The notes under the pieces were generated by a model that did no database searches, was not told the origin of the DNA, and was given only the letters and a program-made list of their open reading frames with translations. The translations under genes and the position numbers were made by a program. A stretch of 63,879 nt of DNA, the filler included, from Myxococcota bacterium (lineage in GTDB: Bacteria; Myxococcota_C; UBA6777), in NCBI GenBank assembly GCA_023150835.1. It is 6 parts of 6 records of this genome, joined end to end, with 100 filler letters (N's around TTAATTAATTAA, not from the genome) between each part and the next. Parts side by side here need not be neighbours in the genome. Positions count along the whole stretch, not along the records: positions 29,715 to 38,980 come from JAKLKB010000182.1; 5 more parts are not named here. The stretch is one strand, 5' to 3'. Positions 16,475 to 57,039 of the stretch are shown here, in pieces (the stretch's first letter is position 1; every line of letters starts with the position of its first letter).

Positions 16475-18740
16475 GGGTGAGGTTTTTGAGCATACTGCGG
16501 ACGTCTTGGACGTGCTTTCCGCGAGGGTGGTGCTTGAGGTACTGCTGATAGACTTTGCGGGCTTGATCGACTTTGTTGCGTTCGTAATAAAGGCTTCCGA
16601 GGGTGACCAATCCACCGGCTGTTGCGCGAGGATCTTTGCGGTAGGCTTGTTCGAGATAGCGCAAGGCTTGTGCGCCTTTGTTTTGCTCATACAAGATATT
16701 GCCCAAAGCGGCCAATACGCGGACATCTTCGGGGGCGCTTTTTTGGGCTTGGCGCAACAGCCGCTCGGCTGCTTTGAATTGCTCGCGGCGTTTGAGTCCT
16801 TCGGCTTTTTCGAGCAGTTGGTCGACTGAACCCGACTTTGCGATGCGCACCGCAGGGCGACGCACCGCAGGGCGACGGCTGATCACAACCCGAGGGCGAG
16901 CGCGAGGACGTACTGCCACTTCAGGGGGGTCTTCAGGATCAGGGCGATCTTCTGGAGTCGGTCGAACGAGCGGGCGAACGATCGGAATAGGCCGATCTAC
17001 GGGCCGATCCGTCTGTCGGTCTGTGGGGCGGTCTGTCGGTCGGTCTGTGGGCCGATCTGTAGGCCGATCTGTAGGCCGATCTGTAGGCCGGTCTGTGGGG
17101 CGGTCTGTCGGTCGATCTGTCGATCGGTCTGTGGGGCGGTCTGTCGGTCGATCTGTCGGCCGGTCTGTAGGCCGATTGGTGGAGATAGGCCGATCGTTGG
17201 TTCGCCCGAGGGTTGGGGCGAGAGGGGGTGTGGCTTGGGTGGTGATGCGGGGCGTTGGGCGAAGCGTCTGCTTGGTAAGCTGGGGAGTGGGCTGAGAGGG
17301 GGGAGGAAAGAGCAGGTAGAGTGTACCGAAGGTGGCGACCATCAAAAGAATACCGCCGCCAAGCCAACGCAGGGTGCGAGAAAGTTTGCTGGGGGGATGA
17401 AAGTCTTTGACAAAAAAGTCGTCGCTCAGGCTGAGTTTTTTTGGAGATTTGACGGGAGGTGTCGGGATCTCGGCTTCTTCGGCGTAGAATCCGATCGAGA
17501 TGGGTTCGAGCAGAGCAAGCTCGGGCTGAGAGGGAGAGATGGGTTCTTTGCGTTCTTTGGTTTGCGCAACAAAAGGTGTCAAAGAGGCCGAAGGTTCAAG
17601 AGGAGTGGAAGGGATGGGCGGTTCGGTCGGTGCCGCAGATCGGGGAAGGGGTGTAGAGTAGGAGAAGGTCTGTGCGGGTTTGGAGGTTGATTTGGGGGCC
17701 GCAAACATCTCGCCTTCAAGGGAGACGGGGGGGGTTATTTCTTGGGAAGAGGCAGCGCGGGTTTCCGCGATGGTTTGGTGTTTGGTGTTGGGTATGGGAT
17801 CTTCGTCGGGGAGAGGGATTCGCCCCTTGTGCATCGGCAAGAAGGGAGAGCTTGGAGTGGTATCGGAAGGGGCCGAAGGCTCGGAGAGATCGATGAAGGG
17901 TTTTTCGTGGTGGGCTGTGTAGCGGGGGGTTTCAGAGAAGGGCGAAGCGAGGGGAGATTCTTGTGAAGCGTCGTCATCGCCCATCAGTTCGGAGCGCAAG
18001 AGTCGATCCAAGGCGTGCGAAGTGTCTTCTTCGAGAAGTTGTTGGATATCGATACTTGCCAAAGAAGCGAGGCTTTGGCTGCTTTGTCGCCGTTCGAGGG
18101 TGGTTCGGGGGGGTGGTGTGGTGGGGAAGGAGGGTTTTCGTTGGAGAGATTCTTCTTCGATGGCGGGAGAATCGAGATCTCCGAGGGCGTGGAACACCAA
18201 GCTGCTGGTGTCTTGGACAGGGAGAACTTGGACATCGGGCTGGGTTTCTTTGGAGCGCGATCCGTTGGGCTTTTTGGACGGAGCGGGTGCAGGGAGATGT
18301 TTGAAGTCGTCGAAGGCGAGGGAATCTTCGATCCGTTCTTGGCGATCTTTTGAAGAAGAGGGAAGGGGGCGGACTTCGCTAAGGGAGAACACGTCGCTGC
18401 GTTGTCTTGGATCGGGAGAGATGGCGTCTAATTCGCCAGAGAGCGGGCCTTGTTCTTCGATGCGATGGAGCAAAGAGACGAGGTCTTGTTGTTCGACATC
18501 GTTGGAATCAAGGGAGTCTTCATCAAAGATGGCGCGGTCTTGCGCGGTGGGTGGAGGCAAGAGGTCTTCCTCTTGGGACTCTGACATCCACGAACGCTCG
18601 GAATAATGCTCTCGCTTGGCGAGCAAGGCTTGGGCGTTGGCGATGGGCTGGGCTGCAACGATCAGATGTTGCGCGGCCTCTTGCGCGGCGTCTGCTAGAA
18701 GCTGCTCCAAACTGACGATCTCTGTGGATTTTGATTTCAT
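16467..18740 (-). CDS. Membrane-anchored Pro/Ser-rich protein with (TDRP)n linker and C-terminal TPRs
   Basis: Long disordered N-terminus, single TM, 12-bp coding repeats, TPR helices ending 'YLKHHPRGKH'; start uncertain. Confidence 0.75.
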   Translation of the reverse strand: MKSKSTEIVSLEQLLADAAQEAAQHLIVAAQPIANAQALLAKREHYSERSWMSESQEEDLLPPPTAQDRAIFDEDSLDSNDVEQQDLVSLLHRIEEQGPLSGELDAISPDPRQRSDVFSLSEVRPLPSSSKDRQERIEDSLAFDDFKHLPAPAPSKKPNGSRSKETQPDVQVLPVQDTSSLVFHALGDLDSPAIEEESLQRKPSFPTTPPPRTTLERRQSSQSLASLASIDIQQLLEEDTSHALDRLLRSELMGDDDASQESPLASPFSETPRYTAHHEKPFIDLSEPSAPSDTTPSSPFLPMHKGRIPLPDEDPIPNTKHQTIAETRAASSQEITPPVSLEGEMFAAPKSTSKPAQTFSYSTPLPRSAAPTEPPIPSTPLEPSASLTPFVAQTKERKEPISPSQPELALLEPISIGFYAEEAEIPTPPVKSPKKLSLSDDFFVKDFHPPSKLSRTLRWLGGGILLMVATFGTLYLLFPPPSQPTPQLTKQTLRPTPRITTQATPPLAPTLGRTNDRPISTNRPTDRPTDRPTDRPTDRSTDRPTDRPTDRPTDRPTDRPTDRPTDRPTDRPTDRQTDRPVDRPIPIVRPLVRPTPEDRPDPEDPPEVAVRPRARPRVVISRRPAVRRPAVRIAKSGSVDQLLEKAEGLKRREQFKAAERLLRQAQKSAPEDVRVLAALGNILYEQNKGAQALRYLEQAYRKDPRATAGGLVTLGSLYYERNKVDQARKVYQQYLKHHPRGKHVQDVRSMLKNLTLN

Positions 18741-19910: not shown

Positions 19911-20050
19911 GTCAACGACCCGCCCCGACATGGAGCGGGCTTGCTTCGGTAAGCCCCGTTGACCCGCCCCCAGAAGCCGAGGGAAACTTTGGTGGAGGAA
20001 ACGTTGGGAGAGAATAGAGAGGCACAGTCGGATGCTTCTCCAGTCCGATG
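19911..20050 (+). ncRNA. IscB omega-RNA (HEARO-like) scaffold, 5' part, contig-truncated
   Basis: 140 nt matching 32148-32287 apart from 2 substitutions; GTCAAC..GGGCTTG..GTTGAC opening; GGATGCTTCTCCAGTCC motif. Confidence 0.85.
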
Positions 20051-20150
20051 NNNNNNNNNNNNNNNNNNNNNNNNNNNNNNNNNNNNNNNNNNNNTTAATT
20101 AATTAANNNNNNNNNNNNNNNNNNNNNNNNNNNNNNNNNNNNNNNNNNNN
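20051..20150. other. Artificial contig linker (also 29615-29714, 38981-39080, 48101-48200, 56940-57039)
   Basis: N runs around the TTAATTAATTAA six-frame stop. Confidence 0.98.
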
Positions 20151-29614: not shown

Positions 29615-29714
29615 NNNNNNNNNNNNNNNNNNNNNNNNNNNNNNNNNNNNNNNNNNNNTTAATTAATTAANNNNNNNNNNNNNNNNNNNNNNNNNNNNNN
29701 NNNNNNNNNNNNNN

Positions 29715-31699: not shown

Positions 31700-32147
31700 A
31701 TGGATCTCGTTCCTTTTTGTCGGGAAATGATGCGGCCTATAGTGTGATCGCAAAGCGTAGGGGCATCCCCCTGTGGCTGCCCAACAATCGGGTGTCTACG
31801 CACTATCCTACGGGAACACATCACTCGGATATCGTATAAGCCTCGCGACGCATGATTACCGCCCCAAACCACGCAGGGTCAAGGGGCGACAGTCCGCGGC
31901 GAGGTGTGGCGCATCACCTCGCACCCCAATCCAACAAGCCACTCCTATCCGATGAGGAACCCGAGAAGCCCCCGATGCCCTTCGATGTTCATACATCACG
32001 GCAGATTAACACCGCACACTCAAGATGAGCACGATACCGAACCCGCTCTTGACTTTGTTGATCTCCTCGGCTATACCGCAACCCAATGCGGTGATATCTA
32101 GCCAAACTTCGCACCCTCATGTAAAGCTACGGAACCATGAGAGCTTC

Positions 32148-32420
32148 GTCAACGACCCGCCCCGACATGGAGCGGGCTTGCTTCGGTAAGCCCCGTTGAC
32201 CCGCCCCAGAAGCCGAGGGAAACTTTGGTGGAGGAAACGTTGGGAGAGAATAGATAGGCATAGTCGGATGCTTCTCCAGTCCGATGCATCTGCGGGACAC
32301 GCGGACAGTCCTTGGGTAAGGCTGCTTCGTGTCTTCAAAACCTCTCGTCCAACCGGGCCTTAAGAACTTGACCGAAACGCACGTTTCGAGAACACCCCGT
32401 CAATATGGGGAAAGGTAACG
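32148..32420 (+). ncRNA. omega-RNA (HEARO-like) scaffold; guide predicted immediately upstream
   Basis: Structured non-coding leader directly 5' of a PLMP ORF; second copy at 19911 with a different flank; 3' end approximate. Confidence 0.85.
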
Positions 32421-33054
32421 TCTTCATGGCACTAAACAGAGTCCTCGTCTTGGACTTCAACCATCAACCCCTGATGCCTTGTCATCCTGCACGCGCTCGC
32501 CAACTGGCATTGCGAGAGCGGTTGTGTGGGTTGGTTGTACCGTTGGAAGTCGGCAGCGGGGGGCAAACGAAGTACAACCGCAGCCGACAAGAGTATCGGA
32601 AAACACATTGGCTGGATGCGGTGTGTGTGGGCGTGTCAGGAGAAAGAGTGTGCGTGGACTTCGCGCAAGAAGTGCTGGAGATCAGAGCGATGGGACGGGG
32701 AAGTCGGCAGAAGTGTAGCGTGGATCAGTACGGTTTGCGAAGCGCGAGACTCCCAAGGGTCGTCTTCCCCCGAACAGGGGCGAAAGCGAGACAGAAGAAA
32801 GTACACGGTTTTCAAACAGGAGACATGGTGGAAGCGGTGGTTCCGAAGGGAAAGAAAGCAGGCCGATACGTCGGACGGGTGGCGGTGCGAAGCACGGGCA
32901 GTTTCAACATCAAAACCCGAAGTGGCGCCACACAAGGCATTTCTTACAAACATTGTCGTCTCCTTCAACACACCGATGGATACGCCTACACACGAAGACA
33001 TGACGGCGCTTCCTCCCCCCTCGCCCATAAGGGGGCTTCCGCGCCGAAGAGACG
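32148..33054 (+). mobile_element. IS200/IS605-superfamily IscB (OMEGA) element, non-autonomous
   Basis: omega-RNA at the 5' end, iscB-derived ORF, terminal hairpin TTCCTCCCCCC..AAGGGGGCTTCC followed by GTGA; no tnpA. Confidence 0.8.
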
Positions 33055-33058
33055 GTGA
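32426..33058 (+). CDS. iscB: IscB derivative with an internal in-frame deletion (PLMP + RuvC-III + C-terminal domain only)
   Basis: RVLVLD..PLMPCHPARARQL joined to ..GSGGQTKYNR..KTHWLDAVCVG..GRGSRQ..GFQTGDMV..GRVAVRSTGSF..DGYAY. Confidence 0.85.
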   Translation: MALNRVLVLDFNHQPLMPCHPARARQLALRERLCGLVVPLEVGSGGQTKYNRSRQEYRKTHWLDAVCVGVSGERVCVDFAQEVLEIRAMGRGSRQKCSVDQYGLRSARLPRVVFPRTGAKARQKKVHGFQTGDMVEAVVPKGKKAGRYVGRVAVRSTGSFNIKTRSGATQGISYKHCRLLQHTDGYAYTRRHDGASSPLAHKGASAPKRR

Positions 33059-33220
33059 ATCGTTCACGTGTAGCTGCGTCAAAAGGTAGAACGTGGTGGT
33101 TGTTTGCCCTGCACAGAGCGCAGCGTGGATGGCAAGCTAGGGAGTCCGTAGGTTTTTTTAGGTGCGATCGAAAAGCAGTACACAAAAAATGGACGAAAGC
33201 ACGATGGTGCGGAGAGAACG

Positions 33221-34006
33221 ATGATCGAGAGTCCACATTACAATTCAAATGATCCGATCGAGATCGCGCCCGGGGTGTTTCACCTCGGCGTGCAGGACGC
33301 GAGACACAGTTTTTCGAATATCCCTTACCTGATCGTCGATGGCGACGAAGCGCTGATCTTGGATCCCGGATCGGCAAAACCTGAGTTCTACGCGACCGTT
33401 TTGCGAAAAGTCCAAGCTGTTGTCGATCCAAAACAAATCAAATACATGGTCGTTCAACACCAAGATCCCGATCTGTGCGCGGCTCTGCCCCTTTTTGAAA
33501 AACTGGTGGATCCCGATGTGAAGATCCTTGCTCCTTTAGAGGCCCAAGTTCTGCTGCAACACTACGGATGCCAACATGATGTTTACCCCTTGGATGACGG
33601 CGACACCCTGACCATGAAACATGGGAGAACACTTTCGTTTATCATGGTTCCTTATTGTCATTTTGTTGGTAATATGATCACTTATGACGCCCGAACCAAG
33701 CTACTTTTTAGCTCAGACGTCTTTGGGGGATTTACGGGAAAAAGTCTCTTGTATGCCGATGACGATTATCCCTTCCAACTGAAAGTGTTTCTCGGACAAT
33801 ACCTCGGCTCCAAAAGAGCCTTGGAATATGCCCTCAAACGCATCGAACTTCTCGACAAAACCGATGGAATCGAGATGATCTGTCCCCAGCATGGATGCCT
33901 GATCAAAAAAGAACAGATCCCCATGTACCTCGAAGCCGGTCATCAGCTCGAAGTCGGCGGAGAAGTGGAAATGCTTGCCAAAAAATATGCAATTTGTTTG
34001 GATTGA
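33221..34006 (+). CDS. MBL-fold oxygen-binding di-iron protein (ODP)-like
   Basis: DPGS, HQDPD, PYCH, FSSD, PQHG; no flavodoxin domain. Confidence 0.85.
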   Translation: MIESPHYNSNDPIEIAPGVFHLGVQDARHSFSNIPYLIVDGDEALILDPGSAKPEFYATVLRKVQAVVDPKQIKYMVVQHQDPDLCAALPLFEKLVDPDVKILAPLEAQVLLQHYGCQHDVYPLDDGDTLTMKHGRTLSFIMVPYCHFVGNMITYDARTKLLFSSDVFGGFTGKSLLYADDDYPFQLKVFLGQYLGSKRALEYALKRIELLDKTDGIEMICPQHGCLIKKEQIPMYLEAGHQLEVGGEVEMLAKKYAICLD

Positions 34007-34400: not shown

Positions 34401-36692
34401 TTGTCACACAACTCTCCAGTCCATCCATCGGAACAAACACTCGATCAGCGGATCAAGGAAGCGCTCGCCCTCGCAAGAGGCGATTTGTCCGTGACTATCG
34501 TTCCTCATGCAGCGGATGACGAACTCGGCCACGCGCTCAAGAAGATCGCCGAATCGATGAGAAACAAAGCAACAGTCATCGAATTGATTGCAGGGGGAGT
34601 TCTGTCCACACAAGCCGAACTGGCTTCGGAGGATGATAATCTAGGAAAAACCATCAACAGGATGGCAAAATCTCTGAAAGACAAGATCCAGCTTACAGAA
34701 ACCGTTGAAAAGGGGGAGTTGTCGTACAACATCGAATTGGCTTCGGAGTCAGACGAACTCGGCAAGGCTTTACAAAACATGGTCGCCTCGCTTCAAAGCA
34801 AACTGGAGGTGCTCGAAGCCATCGCCTTGGGGGATATGTCGATGGAGGTCGAACTGGTTTCCCCCGACGATGAACTTGGTTTGGCCTTCCAAGCGATGCT
34901 CCAAGTCCTTCGGAGTAAAGTTGCTCTTGCCGAGTCCATCGCACGAGGGGATCTGTCGAAGAAATTATTACTCGTTTCCGAAGCCGACGAGTTGGGCAAA
35001 GCGCTACAGGCGATGGTTGCTTCGCTTCAAAGCAAGCTGGAAGTGTTGGAAGCCATCGCTTTGGGAGATATGTCGGTGGAAGTCGAGCTTGTTTCTGAGG
35101 ACGATGAGCTGGGTTTGGCTCTGCAAGCGATGCTCGAAGTTCTCAAGAATAAAGTGTCTCTTGCGGAGTCCATCGCTCGGGGCGATTTGTCCACCGAATT
35201 AAGATTGGCTTCCGAGCAGGATTTTTTGGGCTTGGCTCTGCTGAAAACGCGAGAGTCCTTAAAAAATAAAGCGAAACTCGCTCAAGCCATCGCCAAAGGC
35301 GATTTTTCCATGAAGGTTCAACTTGCCTCCAAGTCCGATGAATTAGGAAAATCACTTCAAATTATGGCGGACAGCTTGGCCACCATGCAAGAAGCCGTCG
35401 CCCAAAAAATGAAAGAAAAATCAACGATCATCGAGATCTTTGAAAAATTTGTTCCCAAACAATTCTTGAACAGGATCGCGATCGAGGGCTTAGAAAAAAT
35501 TCAATTAGGGAGTGCTGAGAGCGATAACATTACCATTCTTTTTTCTGATATCCGTTCGTTTACGACATTGTCTGAAAATTTAGCACCACAGGATCTGCTC
35601 GACTTACTGAACGCTTATTTTAAAAGGATGAATCAGCCGATCTACGACAACGGCGGCTTTGTCGATAAATTTATTGGCGATGGCATTATGGCGTTGTTTA
35701 CCCATCATGGTATCTCCAAAGCCGACGAAGCGCGAAACGCGATCAAAGCGGCCATCGGGATGCAAAAAGCATTGCAGGACTTTAACGAAAATCATCCACC
35801 TCTGGGCGCTGCCCCCCTCCAGATGGGGATCGGTGTGCATACAGGTTTTGTGGTGATCGGAACGGTCGGTTCGGAAGATCGGATGGATTCGACGGTGCTT
35901 GGGGATGCCGTCAACATCGCTGCTCGGCTAGAGGGGCTGACGAAACTTTATCAAGCTTCGATTTTGATCAGCAGCAACACCTTTTTTCTTCTCGATAATC
36001 CCAACGAATTTTCGATGCGATTTATTGACCGTGTGACTGTCAAAGGCAAAACAGACGCGATCTCCGTCTTTGAAGTGTTCGATGCGGATTCCCCCCACAT
36101 CCGCGAACGTAAATTCAAAACCAAACATGCCCTAGAAGACGCCATCTCTTTGTTTTATTTGAAGCAATTCGACAAAGCGCATACACTTCTTGATCAGTGT
36201 TTGTCTTTATTTCCTCAAGACAAAACCGCTCAATTATACAAAGAACGATGCGAAGAAATGCTGCTTGCGACCGAAAAGCACGAAAAGGAGCCTCTCTCGT
36301 GGAGAGCGAACTGGATGATCGGCGTGGATGTGCTGGATCAACAGCATGAAGAGCTGTTTCGTCGGATCAATACGCTATTTAAAGCCATCGAACATGGAAA
36401 CAATCAAGAGGTGATCAAAGTCGTTCAGTTTTTGGAAGAGTATGTCTTGTATCATTTCGAGGAAGAAGAGCGGCTGATGCTGGAATATGGATATCCAGAG
36501 TATTCGTTTCACTTGTCCCAACATCACCGATTTATCGAAGATTTCAAAAGTTTGAAAAGAGAGTGCGAATCTAAGGGCAGCAGTTTTCATTTGGCCCTGC
36601 GCACGCAATGTCAAGTGGTCGATTGGATGATCCACCATATCGCCAAAACCGATCGGAAGCTAGGAAAATACTTGAACGGAAAACTGCGGTAG
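34401..36692 (+). CDS. Soluble poly-HAMP class III adenylate cyclase with C-terminal bacteriohemerythrin
   Basis: About eight 39-aa GDLS..DELG repeats; LFSDIRSFT, DKFIGDG, GDAVNIAARLE; hemerythrin H, HxxxE, HxxxH, HxxxxD; TTG start after AGGAG. Confidence 0.9.
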   Translation: MSHNSPVHPSEQTLDQRIKEALALARGDLSVTIVPHAADDELGHALKKIAESMRNKATVIELIAGGVLSTQAELASEDDNLGKTINRMAKSLKDKIQLTETVEKGELSYNIELASESDELGKALQNMVASLQSKLEVLEAIALGDMSMEVELVSPDDELGLAFQAMLQVLRSKVALAESIARGDLSKKLLLVSEADELGKALQAMVASLQSKLEVLEAIALGDMSVEVELVSEDDELGLALQAMLEVLKNKVSLAESIARGDLSTELRLASEQDFLGLALLKTRESLKNKAKLAQAIAKGDFSMKVQLASKSDELGKSLQIMADSLATMQEAVAQKMKEKSTIIEIFEKFVPKQFLNRIAIEGLEKIQLGSAESDNITILFSDIRSFTTLSENLAPQDLLDLLNAYFKRMNQPIYDNGGFVDKFIGDGIMALFTHHGISKADEARNAIKAAIGMQKALQDFNENHPPLGAAPLQMGIGVHTGFVVIGTVGSEDRMDSTVLGDAVNIAARLEGLTKLYQASILISSNTFFLLDNPNEFSMRFIDRVTVKGKTDAISVFEVFDADSPHIRERKFKTKHALEDAISLFYLKQFDKAHTLLDQCLSLFPQDKTAQLYKERCEEMLLATEKHEKEPLSWRANWMIGVDVLDQQHEELFRRINTLFKAIEHGNNQEVIKVVQFLEEYVLYHFEEEERLMLEYGYPEYSFHLSQHHRFIEDFKSLKRECESKGSSFHLALRTQCQVVDWMIHHIAKTDRKLGKYLNGKLR

Positions 36693-38980: not shown

Positions 38981-39080
38981 NNNNNNNNNNNNNNNNNNNN
39001 NNNNNNNNNNNNNNNNNNNNNNNNTTAATTAATTAANNNNNNNNNNNNNNNNNNNNNNNNNNNNNNNNNNNNNNNNNNNN

Positions 39081-48006: not shown

Positions 48007-48235
48007 CGCTGAGAAGTGTTGCCTCTTGGGGTGAGGGGAATCACAAGACGTCCATTCCTTCGATGTTTCTGTGTACACATCCAAAAGATCTCACTGTTTT
48101 NNNNNNNNNNNNNNNNNNNNNNNNNNNNNNNNNNNNNNNNNNNNTTAATTAATTAANNNNNNNNNNNNNNNNNNNNNNNNNNNNNNNNNNNNNNNNNNNN
48201 TGGGGGGAAAAAGAGCATATCTGGGGGGTGGGATG

Positions 48236-56939: not shown

Positions 56940-57039
56940 NNNNNNNNNNNNNNNNNNNNNNNNNNNNNNNNNNNNNNNNNNNNTTAATTAATTAANNNNN
57001 NNNNNNNNNNNNNNNNNNNNNNNNNNNNNNNNNNNNNNN

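Follow-up and report, generated by a model that had tools for sequence, protein, structure and literature searches.

An IscB insertion sequence of a Myxococcota genome that appears internally deleted and non-autonomous, with its omega-RNA and both ends retained

The closest described relatives of the locus reported here are the ISC transposons, insertion sequences of the IS200/IS605 superfamily that carry IscB and count among OMEGA systems (short for obligate mobile element-guided activity). For ISC1-1_MA, empty sites showed 5'-GT and CG-3' termini and insertion at N|ATGA, and the same account describes the role of the subterminal hairpins and reports families of full-length IscB elements, plus one with identically corrupted open reading frames (ORFs) (Kapitonov, Makarova & Koonin 2016, PMC4810608). 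Elements like the palindrome-associated transposable elements (PATEs) often encode omega-RNAs that need a nuclease in trans (Meers et al. 2023, PMC10055086), and stand-alone omega-RNAs are mentioned in a commentary (PMC11610941). Deletion derivatives and omega-RNAs used in trans are already established ideas. Here we describe a locus in a 63,879-nt stretch of DNA, called the window throughout, from a Myxococcota metagenome-assembled genome (MAG; GCA_023150835.1). We read this locus as an internally deleted, non-autonomous ISC1-type IscB insertion sequence whose omega-RNA could serve in trans, and we give this reading a probability of about 0.76.

Like the ISC1-type transposons, the element has GTCA...CG termini followed by ATGA or GTGA and no target duplication, has subterminal imperfect hairpins, is multi-copy and would draw on a Y1 transposase in trans (PMC4810608); unlike them, it lacks 252 codons. 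With PATE-like derivatives it shares its non-autonomous character, the retention of ends and omega-RNA, and the reliance on other copies for nuclease and transposase, whereas PATEs, as that account describes them, contain no protein-coding gene (PMC10055086) and the present element still carries an uninterrupted frame of 210 aa and 0.9 kb of parental sequence. This places it between a PATE and a complete ISC element. IsrB and IshB (Altae-Tran et al. 2021, as given in PMC11610941) likewise fall short of IscB in length and have a PLMP motif at the N terminus and an omega-RNA upstream. According to the same commentary, however, IsrB (~350 aa) keeps the whole split RuvC and is without HNH only, and IshB (~180 aa) has PLMP and HNH without RuvC, whereas the 210-aa protein has lost RuvC-I, the bridge helix, RuvC-II and HNH. 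A further comparison is offered by the TldRs, RNA-guided transcription factors domesticated from TnpB (Wiegand et al. 2023, 10.1101/2023.11.30.569447). The 210-aa protein resembles them in being a nuclease-inactive descendant of a transposon RNA-guided nuclease with an adjoining guide RNA. TldRs keep the RNA-guided DNA-binding fold, have lost the transposon ends and use a guide directed at a host gene; in the present element, by contrast, the deletion has taken the bridge helix and RuvC core, both ends survive, and the guide is simply the DNA next to the insertion. The locus thus falls outside active IscB (RuvC catalytic set, HNH), IsrB, IshB, PATE and TldR-like proteins, and it has the features of a non-autonomous ISC or IS200/IS605 element, namely the termini, the hairpins, a 4-nt target without duplication and copies in different flanks. 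The surviving part of the protein shares 94% identity with a full-length IscB, and we regard the protein as a recent IscB derivative and not as a separate family. We found no description of this PLMP-to-RuvC-III fusion in the literature searched.

The window consists of six contigs strung together, with five N44-TTAATTAATTAA-N44 spacers at 20051-20150, 29615-29714, 38981-39080, 48101-48200 and 56940-57039. The element lies on the contig at 29715-38980 (9266 bp), and arguments from the neighborhood are valid only inside that interval. Two references were used to map the deletion: P0121, the closest full-length relative protein (458 aa, named 'RNA-guided endonuclease IscB', from a Myxococcota MAG), and L009, a full-length iscB locus that served as the DNA-level reference. 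The features of the element, including its target-adjacent motif (TAM), are as follows.

32132..32147, plus strand: predicted omega-RNA guide, the 16 nt of flank directly 5' of the scaffold, with the length assumed from published IscB guides
32148..32425, plus strand: omega-RNA (HEARO) scaffold and left element end (5'-GTCAACG...), placed by the HEARO match and by identity to sister omega-RNAs
32426..33058, plus strand: remnant iscB ORF of 210 aa (P0001), with its stop codon TGA inside the target-site motif
32426..32506, plus strand: first 27 IscB codons (strand 1, PLMP motif and helix start), equivalent to P0121 residues 1-27; 1 of 81 nt differs from L009 (counted by eye)
32506..32507, plus strand: deletion junction, called D1, at which RuvC-I, the bridge helix, the REC linker, RuvC-II and HNH are gone
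32507..33054, plus strand: retained C-terminal coding part, 94% identical to P0121 279-452, with the RuvC-III remnant, WED and the TAM-interacting (TI) beta-barrel (~32798-33010)
33004..33046, plus strand: subterminal imperfect hairpin of the right end, the presumed Y1-transposase binding site (DNA fold -12.6 kcal/mol, z -1.26, not significant alone)
33055..33058, plus strand: target site and TAM, GTGA, preceded by ...AGACG; the element proper ends at 33054 (...ACG)

The loss of the nuclease core is seen directly in the coding sequence. The frame 32405-33058 is open (217 aa), and the start conserved among relatives, the ATG at 32426, gives 210 aa. When the window was searched with P0121 by tblastn, only two pieces aligned: residues 1-27 fell on 32426-32506 and residues 279-452 on 32504-33025 (94% identity), and residues 28-278 had no counterpart. 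Compared with L009, the deletion is of 756 nt (252 codons; L009 676-1431), with the break after ...CCAACTG (32506) and before GCATTGCG, and one G can be assigned to either side. In the 210-aa protein, Pfam recovered only positions 1-23 of the 174 of the RRXRR profile, at an E value of 4e-4 that is below the cut-off, and gave neither an HNH nor a RuvC match. The PLMP domain, which consists of three strands and a helix (Kato 2022), is cut mid-helix, with 27 residues left. P0121 110-323 was aligned on OgeuIscB 143-350, which sets THWLDA opposite KDHYLDA (~338-344). The catalytic residues of OgeuIscB are D61, E193, H340 and D343 in RuvC and H247 in HNH, the latter spanning 199-295 (Kato 2022). Of these, D61, E193 and H247, along with the whole of HNH (199-295), map to the portion of P0121 aligned to the deleted stretch, and the His and Asp of the RuvC-III remnant are retained (THWLDA, 32603-32620). 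Given that the RuvC-I Asp, the RuvC-II Glu, the bridge helix and HNH are all in the missing segment, the 210-aa protein is predicted to be incapable of DNA cleavage. The Arg-rich bridge helix anchors the guide seed in OgeuIscB (Kato 2022), and because this helix and most of the RuvC core are gone, guided DNA binding by the 210-aa protein is probably lost as well. A first-pass annotation, made from the sequence alone, had proposed a 210-aa in-frame fusion at ~32506 without stops or frameshifts, in a protein unable to cut DNA, and the open frame, the two-piece match, the base-level break and the missing catalytic residues all bear this out. Its description of the fusion as PLMP joined to the segment that follows HNH needs amendment: the PLMP motif and the fusion are there, but only 27 residues of the domain are left, and the C-terminal part starts inside RuvC-III.

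The observations that weigh against our reading are given from here on beside the alternatives that they favor. We considered that the junction could be an assembly artefact, in which the locus in truth carries a full-length iscB and the two ends were joined via a path from another copy. The stretch or part of it is contained in 20 of the 24 sequencing runs listed, from 9 studies, and 4 runs were examined in detail via their contigs, two of DNA (X1 and X4) and two of RNA (X15 and X17, the latter from another study). In both DNA runs contigs cover the two unique flanks, showing no more than one difference and a depth of ~9-14, whereas the element interior has a depth of 12-110 in X1 and 33-203 in X4 and is fragmented into short contigs, the pattern that a multi-copy family should give. 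The element often contains contig ends, both in this MAG and in the related, incomplete Myxococcota MAG G001, and no DNA contig bridging 32506|32507 at this locus was seen among the records listed. The multi-copy depth, the contig ends and the lack of a bridging contig are each consistent with a misjoin. The two sides of the junction, however, share at most 1 nt and thus no k-mer, so that repeat collapse, which the first-pass annotation had raised as a danger, cannot explain it. One contig of X1 (record 3) is an exact match to the window variant of 32376-32489, at a depth of 8.0, near the 9.5 and 8.7 of the flanks. The junction also recurs in two independently assembled, sequence-distinct MAG proteins from NCBI. 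P0002 has the same length as the window protein (210 aa) at 86% identity and an open frame, and P0004 (170 aa) starts a few residues before the junction; ARQLA(L/S)RERL at the junction is common to both. In the motif RGSRQKC, the window protein, P0002 and P0004 have K, and all five full-length proteins aligned have M at that site. An RNA-library contig of another study (X17, record 22) spans 32477-32604 with 3 differences, reaching 30 letters to the left of the junction against a bar of 31. The junction therefore exists in nature, and its placement at this very locus rests on the MAG contig; we hold an artefact to be very improbable. An exact 21-mer over the junction had 0 matches in viral_contigs, and scans of genome and metagenome contigs for the DNA of the P0002, P0004 and P0121 loci returned only more distant copies. 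Another joint, 32419 to 32617, which skips 197 nt and removes the start codon and D1, was seen in one contig each of X4 (DNA) and X15 (RNA) with a shorter side of 29 letters, a weak observation; the community may carry it as one more deletion variant.

The ends of the element were compared across copies, 13 at the right and 4 at the left; the copies set beside the window included L009, L001 (another short form, on contig C14 of G001) and ten 3'-end fragments. Similarity begins at 32148 and ends at 33058/33059, with unrelated flanks on either side, and the upstream flanks of the 4 copies compared are likewise unrelated. Each of the 13 right ends closes with ...CG(A/G)TGA, beyond which the copies diverge; 11 have ATGA, and the other two, those of the window and L012, have GTGA. 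Because the rule for ISC1-1_MA is 5'-GT...CG-3' at N|ATGA, the element is taken to be 32148-33054, with GTGA as its target motif. The inner stem of the terminal hairpin varies in sequence and yet still pairs in other copies (13 aligned ends, read by eye). The copy comparison and the published ISC1 termini agree with what had been proposed from the sequence, namely a guide/element boundary at 32147|32148 and a terminal hairpin followed by GTGA as the TAM; the fold energy of the hairpin is not significant alone. Comparison of 33008-33058 with the right ends of L009, L001 and L012 showed that most copies carry, in the hairpin loop, the TAA that ends the ORF; this codon is altered in the window and in P0002, where ~11 extra residues lead to the TGA of the target motif.

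Upstream of the ORF, the omega-RNA appears to be whole. HEARO (RF02033) matches 32148-32372 on the plus strand over model positions 1-211 of 211, with 61.1 bits (E 3.2e-11 in a 3-kb search, 6.8e-10 in a search of the whole window), and two further conserved hairpins extend beyond this match to ~32420. Over its 278 nt the scaffold is 90-92.5% identical to the omega-RNAs that adjoin full-length iscB in L009, L032 and L034. The ~270-nt structured leader described at first sight corresponds to a full-model HEARO match, and the covariance search suggested for it gave a full-length hit that stays under the family's gathering score. An IscB guide is ~16 nt (Kato 2022). The guide 16-mer occurs once in the window, allowing up to 3 mismatches, and its predicted target is GAACCATGAGAGCTTC + GTGA. 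Contigs of the RNA runs have high depth over the omega-RNA part (4 runs examined).

We also weighed the possibility that the whole element is a dead relic, with its protein killed, its omega-RNA and ends unused, and its sequence simply undecayed. The HEARO score of 61.1 bits lies below the gathering score of 83, and a search at that threshold lists nothing for the window. The window copy is one C short in the C-run at 32203 compared with most contigs in 3 of the 4 runs examined. Over this copy's own 5' flank and guide, no RNA contigs were found in the 4 runs, so the omega-RNA of this copy may or may not be expressed. No match to the Y1 transposase family PF01797 was found in G001, an incomplete genome. 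These observations fit a dead relic, but a score of 61 bits is no outlier, given that the sister copies in G001 score from 34.7 to 94.9 bits (16 matches) and that the copy on G001:C211, beside a full-length 5' half, scores 71.2 bits; the copy on G001:C139 scores 84.9 bits. The differences between the scaffold and its sister omega-RNAs are mostly at loop positions or preserve pairing (alignment read by eye), both termini and the target motif are intact, and the exchange of sequence with full-length copies described below implies continued recombination. We therefore consider a dead relic to be unlikely, somewhat less so than the other alternatives. A promoter scan of 31750-33250 found 0 sigma-70-like sites, which says little for this phylum.

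Full-length partners for a non-autonomous element are present in the surrounding community; they are known from the same samples, not from the same genome, and this counts against our reading. In each of the 4 runs, the loose ends at 32506 and 32503 lead on into sequence of full-length IscB. In G001 (loci L016-L046), most IscB pieces are cut by contig ends, among them the 5' halves that carry the core, on C139 and C211. The sole copy in G001 found assembled end to end in a contig is the short form L001. Deletion forms may be over-represented among the assembled iscB genes of MAGs.

The window copy also appears to have exchanged sequence with its sisters. In a tree of the C-terminal part, the window copy groups with full-length P0121 (97/90), in a full-length clade that excludes P0002 and P0004, and in the alignment each copy with the D1 junction carries the downstream haplotype of a different full-length variant. 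We read this mosaic downstream sequence as the likely product of gene conversion among the copies of a multi-copy family. Identity to L009 is 93.9% for 32148-32506 and 80.6% for 32507-33058, a gap that reflects either far stronger constraint on the RNA or a mosaic, recombinant origin of the copy. A 30-nt insertion also varies among the copies.

32735..32764, plus strand: 30-nt insertion (LRSARLPRVV) in the region of the WED/TI linker, carried by the window, P0002 and P0121 and not found in P0004, P0122, P0125, P0126, P0127, L009 or L001

P0008 seems to have the same 30-nt insertion DNA in another frame, FAKRETPKGRLPRT vs LRSARLPRVVFPRT (our own reading of the sequences).

The third alternative concerns the protein. 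The 210-aa product could be a selected, functional 'mini-IscB' that binds the omega-RNA linker or TAM DNA and either chaperones RNA or competes with full-length IscB in a dominant-negative manner. The OgeuIscB structure has the omega-RNA linker in the groove that separates WED/TI from PLMP/RuvC, and the TAM duplex is placed between WED and TI (Kato 2022). By analogy with that structure, the parts retained in the 210-aa protein would include real RNA and DNA contact surfaces, given that the WED and TAM-interacting domains are present (94% identity to P0121 279-452). An AlphaFold2 model has a mean predicted local distance difference test score (pLDDT) of 70.5, with 91-97 in the 10-residue blocks over 131-180 and beta-strands in 125-195, so the TI barrel is confidently modeled. 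The window ORF is fully open and has 0 changes at the 55 columns that are at least 95% conserved across 120 full-length proteins, which fits youth or constraint. Over 123 shared C-terminal codons, dN/dS (NG86) is 0.19 for window/L009 and 0.24 for window/L001, compared with 0.10 for L009/L001. The junction has lasted to 86% protein identity in another assembly with the frame open, and one contig from an RNA library crosses it; a small protein under selection would also account for both. Finally, internal-deletion forms that keep the N terminus and the C terminus recur, making up 22 of 120 listed homologues of similar length.

Several of these points carry less weight on closer inspection. A dN/dS below 1 does not settle the question of selection, because most of the C-terminal divergence probably predates the deletion or deletions. 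A three-taxon split suggested a higher ratio on the window branch, which we do not rely on, given that this branch includes full-length ancestry. The survey of short homologues was a protein search, which favors in-frame forms, so the in-frame recurrence is partly a collection effect. The break points in these forms are also scattered, at residues 27-162 on the left and 191-311 on the right (P0121 numbering), and a second junction type, with CAAG microhomology, is found in P0005, P0008 and L001. The short forms thus appear to be a continuum of deletions, not one architecture. In 21 deletion forms the mean number of conserved-site changes was 2.24, about three times the 0.72 of the 120 full-length proteins (Mann-Whitney p 9e-6), with the deletion forms also somewhat more diverged overall. 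The two proteins that share the window junction show the same tendency: P0002 has 3 conserved-site changes (R304G, L336P and V391I), and P0004 has W314G and no in-frame PLMP part. The PLMP remnant is not confidently folded, with block pLDDT of 41-54 over residues 1-30, a value that may be lowered by the input, given that the MAFFT alignment put query residues 16-27 against the pre-junction segment of full-length proteins. The top Foldseek matches of the model were IsrB (8dmb) and IscB structures, at TM scores of only 0.25-0.27, and phmmer of the 210-aa protein against PDB sequences gave no match at E <= 0.001. The C-terminal tree, which places the window copy with full-length P0121 and not with the same-junction proteins, and the retention of transposon ends and a flank-derived guide, unlike in domesticated TldRs, also argue against a selected small protein. 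We hold such a protein to be improbable. We give an equally small chance to a wider form of the idea, in which the in-frame remnants are a recurrent, transiently selected nuclease-less class that grips the omega-RNA linker and TAM duplex and competes with or modulates full-length IscB. Modulation could, for example, mean damping of donor-site cutting or protection of the element's own RNA, and the D1 lineage (the window, P0002 and P0004) would then be one such class member, spreading with its own omega-RNA. The first-pass annotation had offered a new minimal omega-RNA-binding class or a recent deletion relic as the two options. The scattered breaks, the excess of conserved-site changes, the decay of the siblings and the truncated PLMP remnant speak against the former; the latter is favored, but the relic is not unique to this copy, as a search for the same junction in other genomes showed.

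Under the reading we prefer, that of a non-autonomous element, a single deletion with at most 1 nt of microhomology would have produced the shortened form, which would since have endured as a lineage of non-autonomous elements and exchanged sequence with sister copies by recombination. Its omega-RNA, with the locus-specific guide 32132-32147, would be loaded by full-length IscB made elsewhere. IscB would cut the empty donor site, predicted to be ...GAGAGCTTC|GTGA..., homologous repair would restore the copy, and a Y1 transposase supplied in trans would move the element. The open frame is most likely a young by-product, undegraded so far, and not a selected gene. Use of the omega-RNA in trans by a full-length IscB, which had been suggested at the outset, could well occur, given the full-length copies in the same samples and the published PATE-like view. 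As for the empty site, no joint that skips the whole element was listed in the 4 runs, and contigs cannot show absence.

The locus is a clean natural example of an IscB/OMEGA element turning non-autonomous, in which one deletion removes the nuclease core and the RNA, the ends and the target motif stay. The shortened form persists and exchanges sequence with full-length sisters, which fits the published modular, in-trans view of OMEGA RNA and protein. It also provides a testable pair, an omega-RNA with a predicted 16-nt guide and a GTGA/ATGA motif and a 94%-identical full-length IscB. The locus would be of greater importance only if the remnant protein binds RNA or TAM DNA and modulates IscB, which is unlikely on present evidence.

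Elsewhere in the window, the start of a second copy of the omega-RNA was found on another contig.

19911..20050, plus strand: second omega-RNA copy, first 140 nt, 97.9% identical to 32148-32286; the N run starts at 20051

The upstream flank of this copy differs from that of the copy at 32148, and the copy, cut by the contig end, could be either full-length or shortened. Chance was taken to explain a match to mir-341 at 16975-17060 (E 5.8e-4, 35 bits vs a cut-off of 90). Downstream of the element, the neighboring gene (33221-34003) had 0 of 120 listed homologues on contigs of 8002, 57205 or 36733 bp, those of the sibling copies, which hints only weakly that the siblings sit in other contexts. 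Farther along the same contig, a 763-aa ORF at 34401-36692 has many HAMP-like repeats followed by an apparent nucleotide cyclase and a hemerythrin-like end (translation read by eye).

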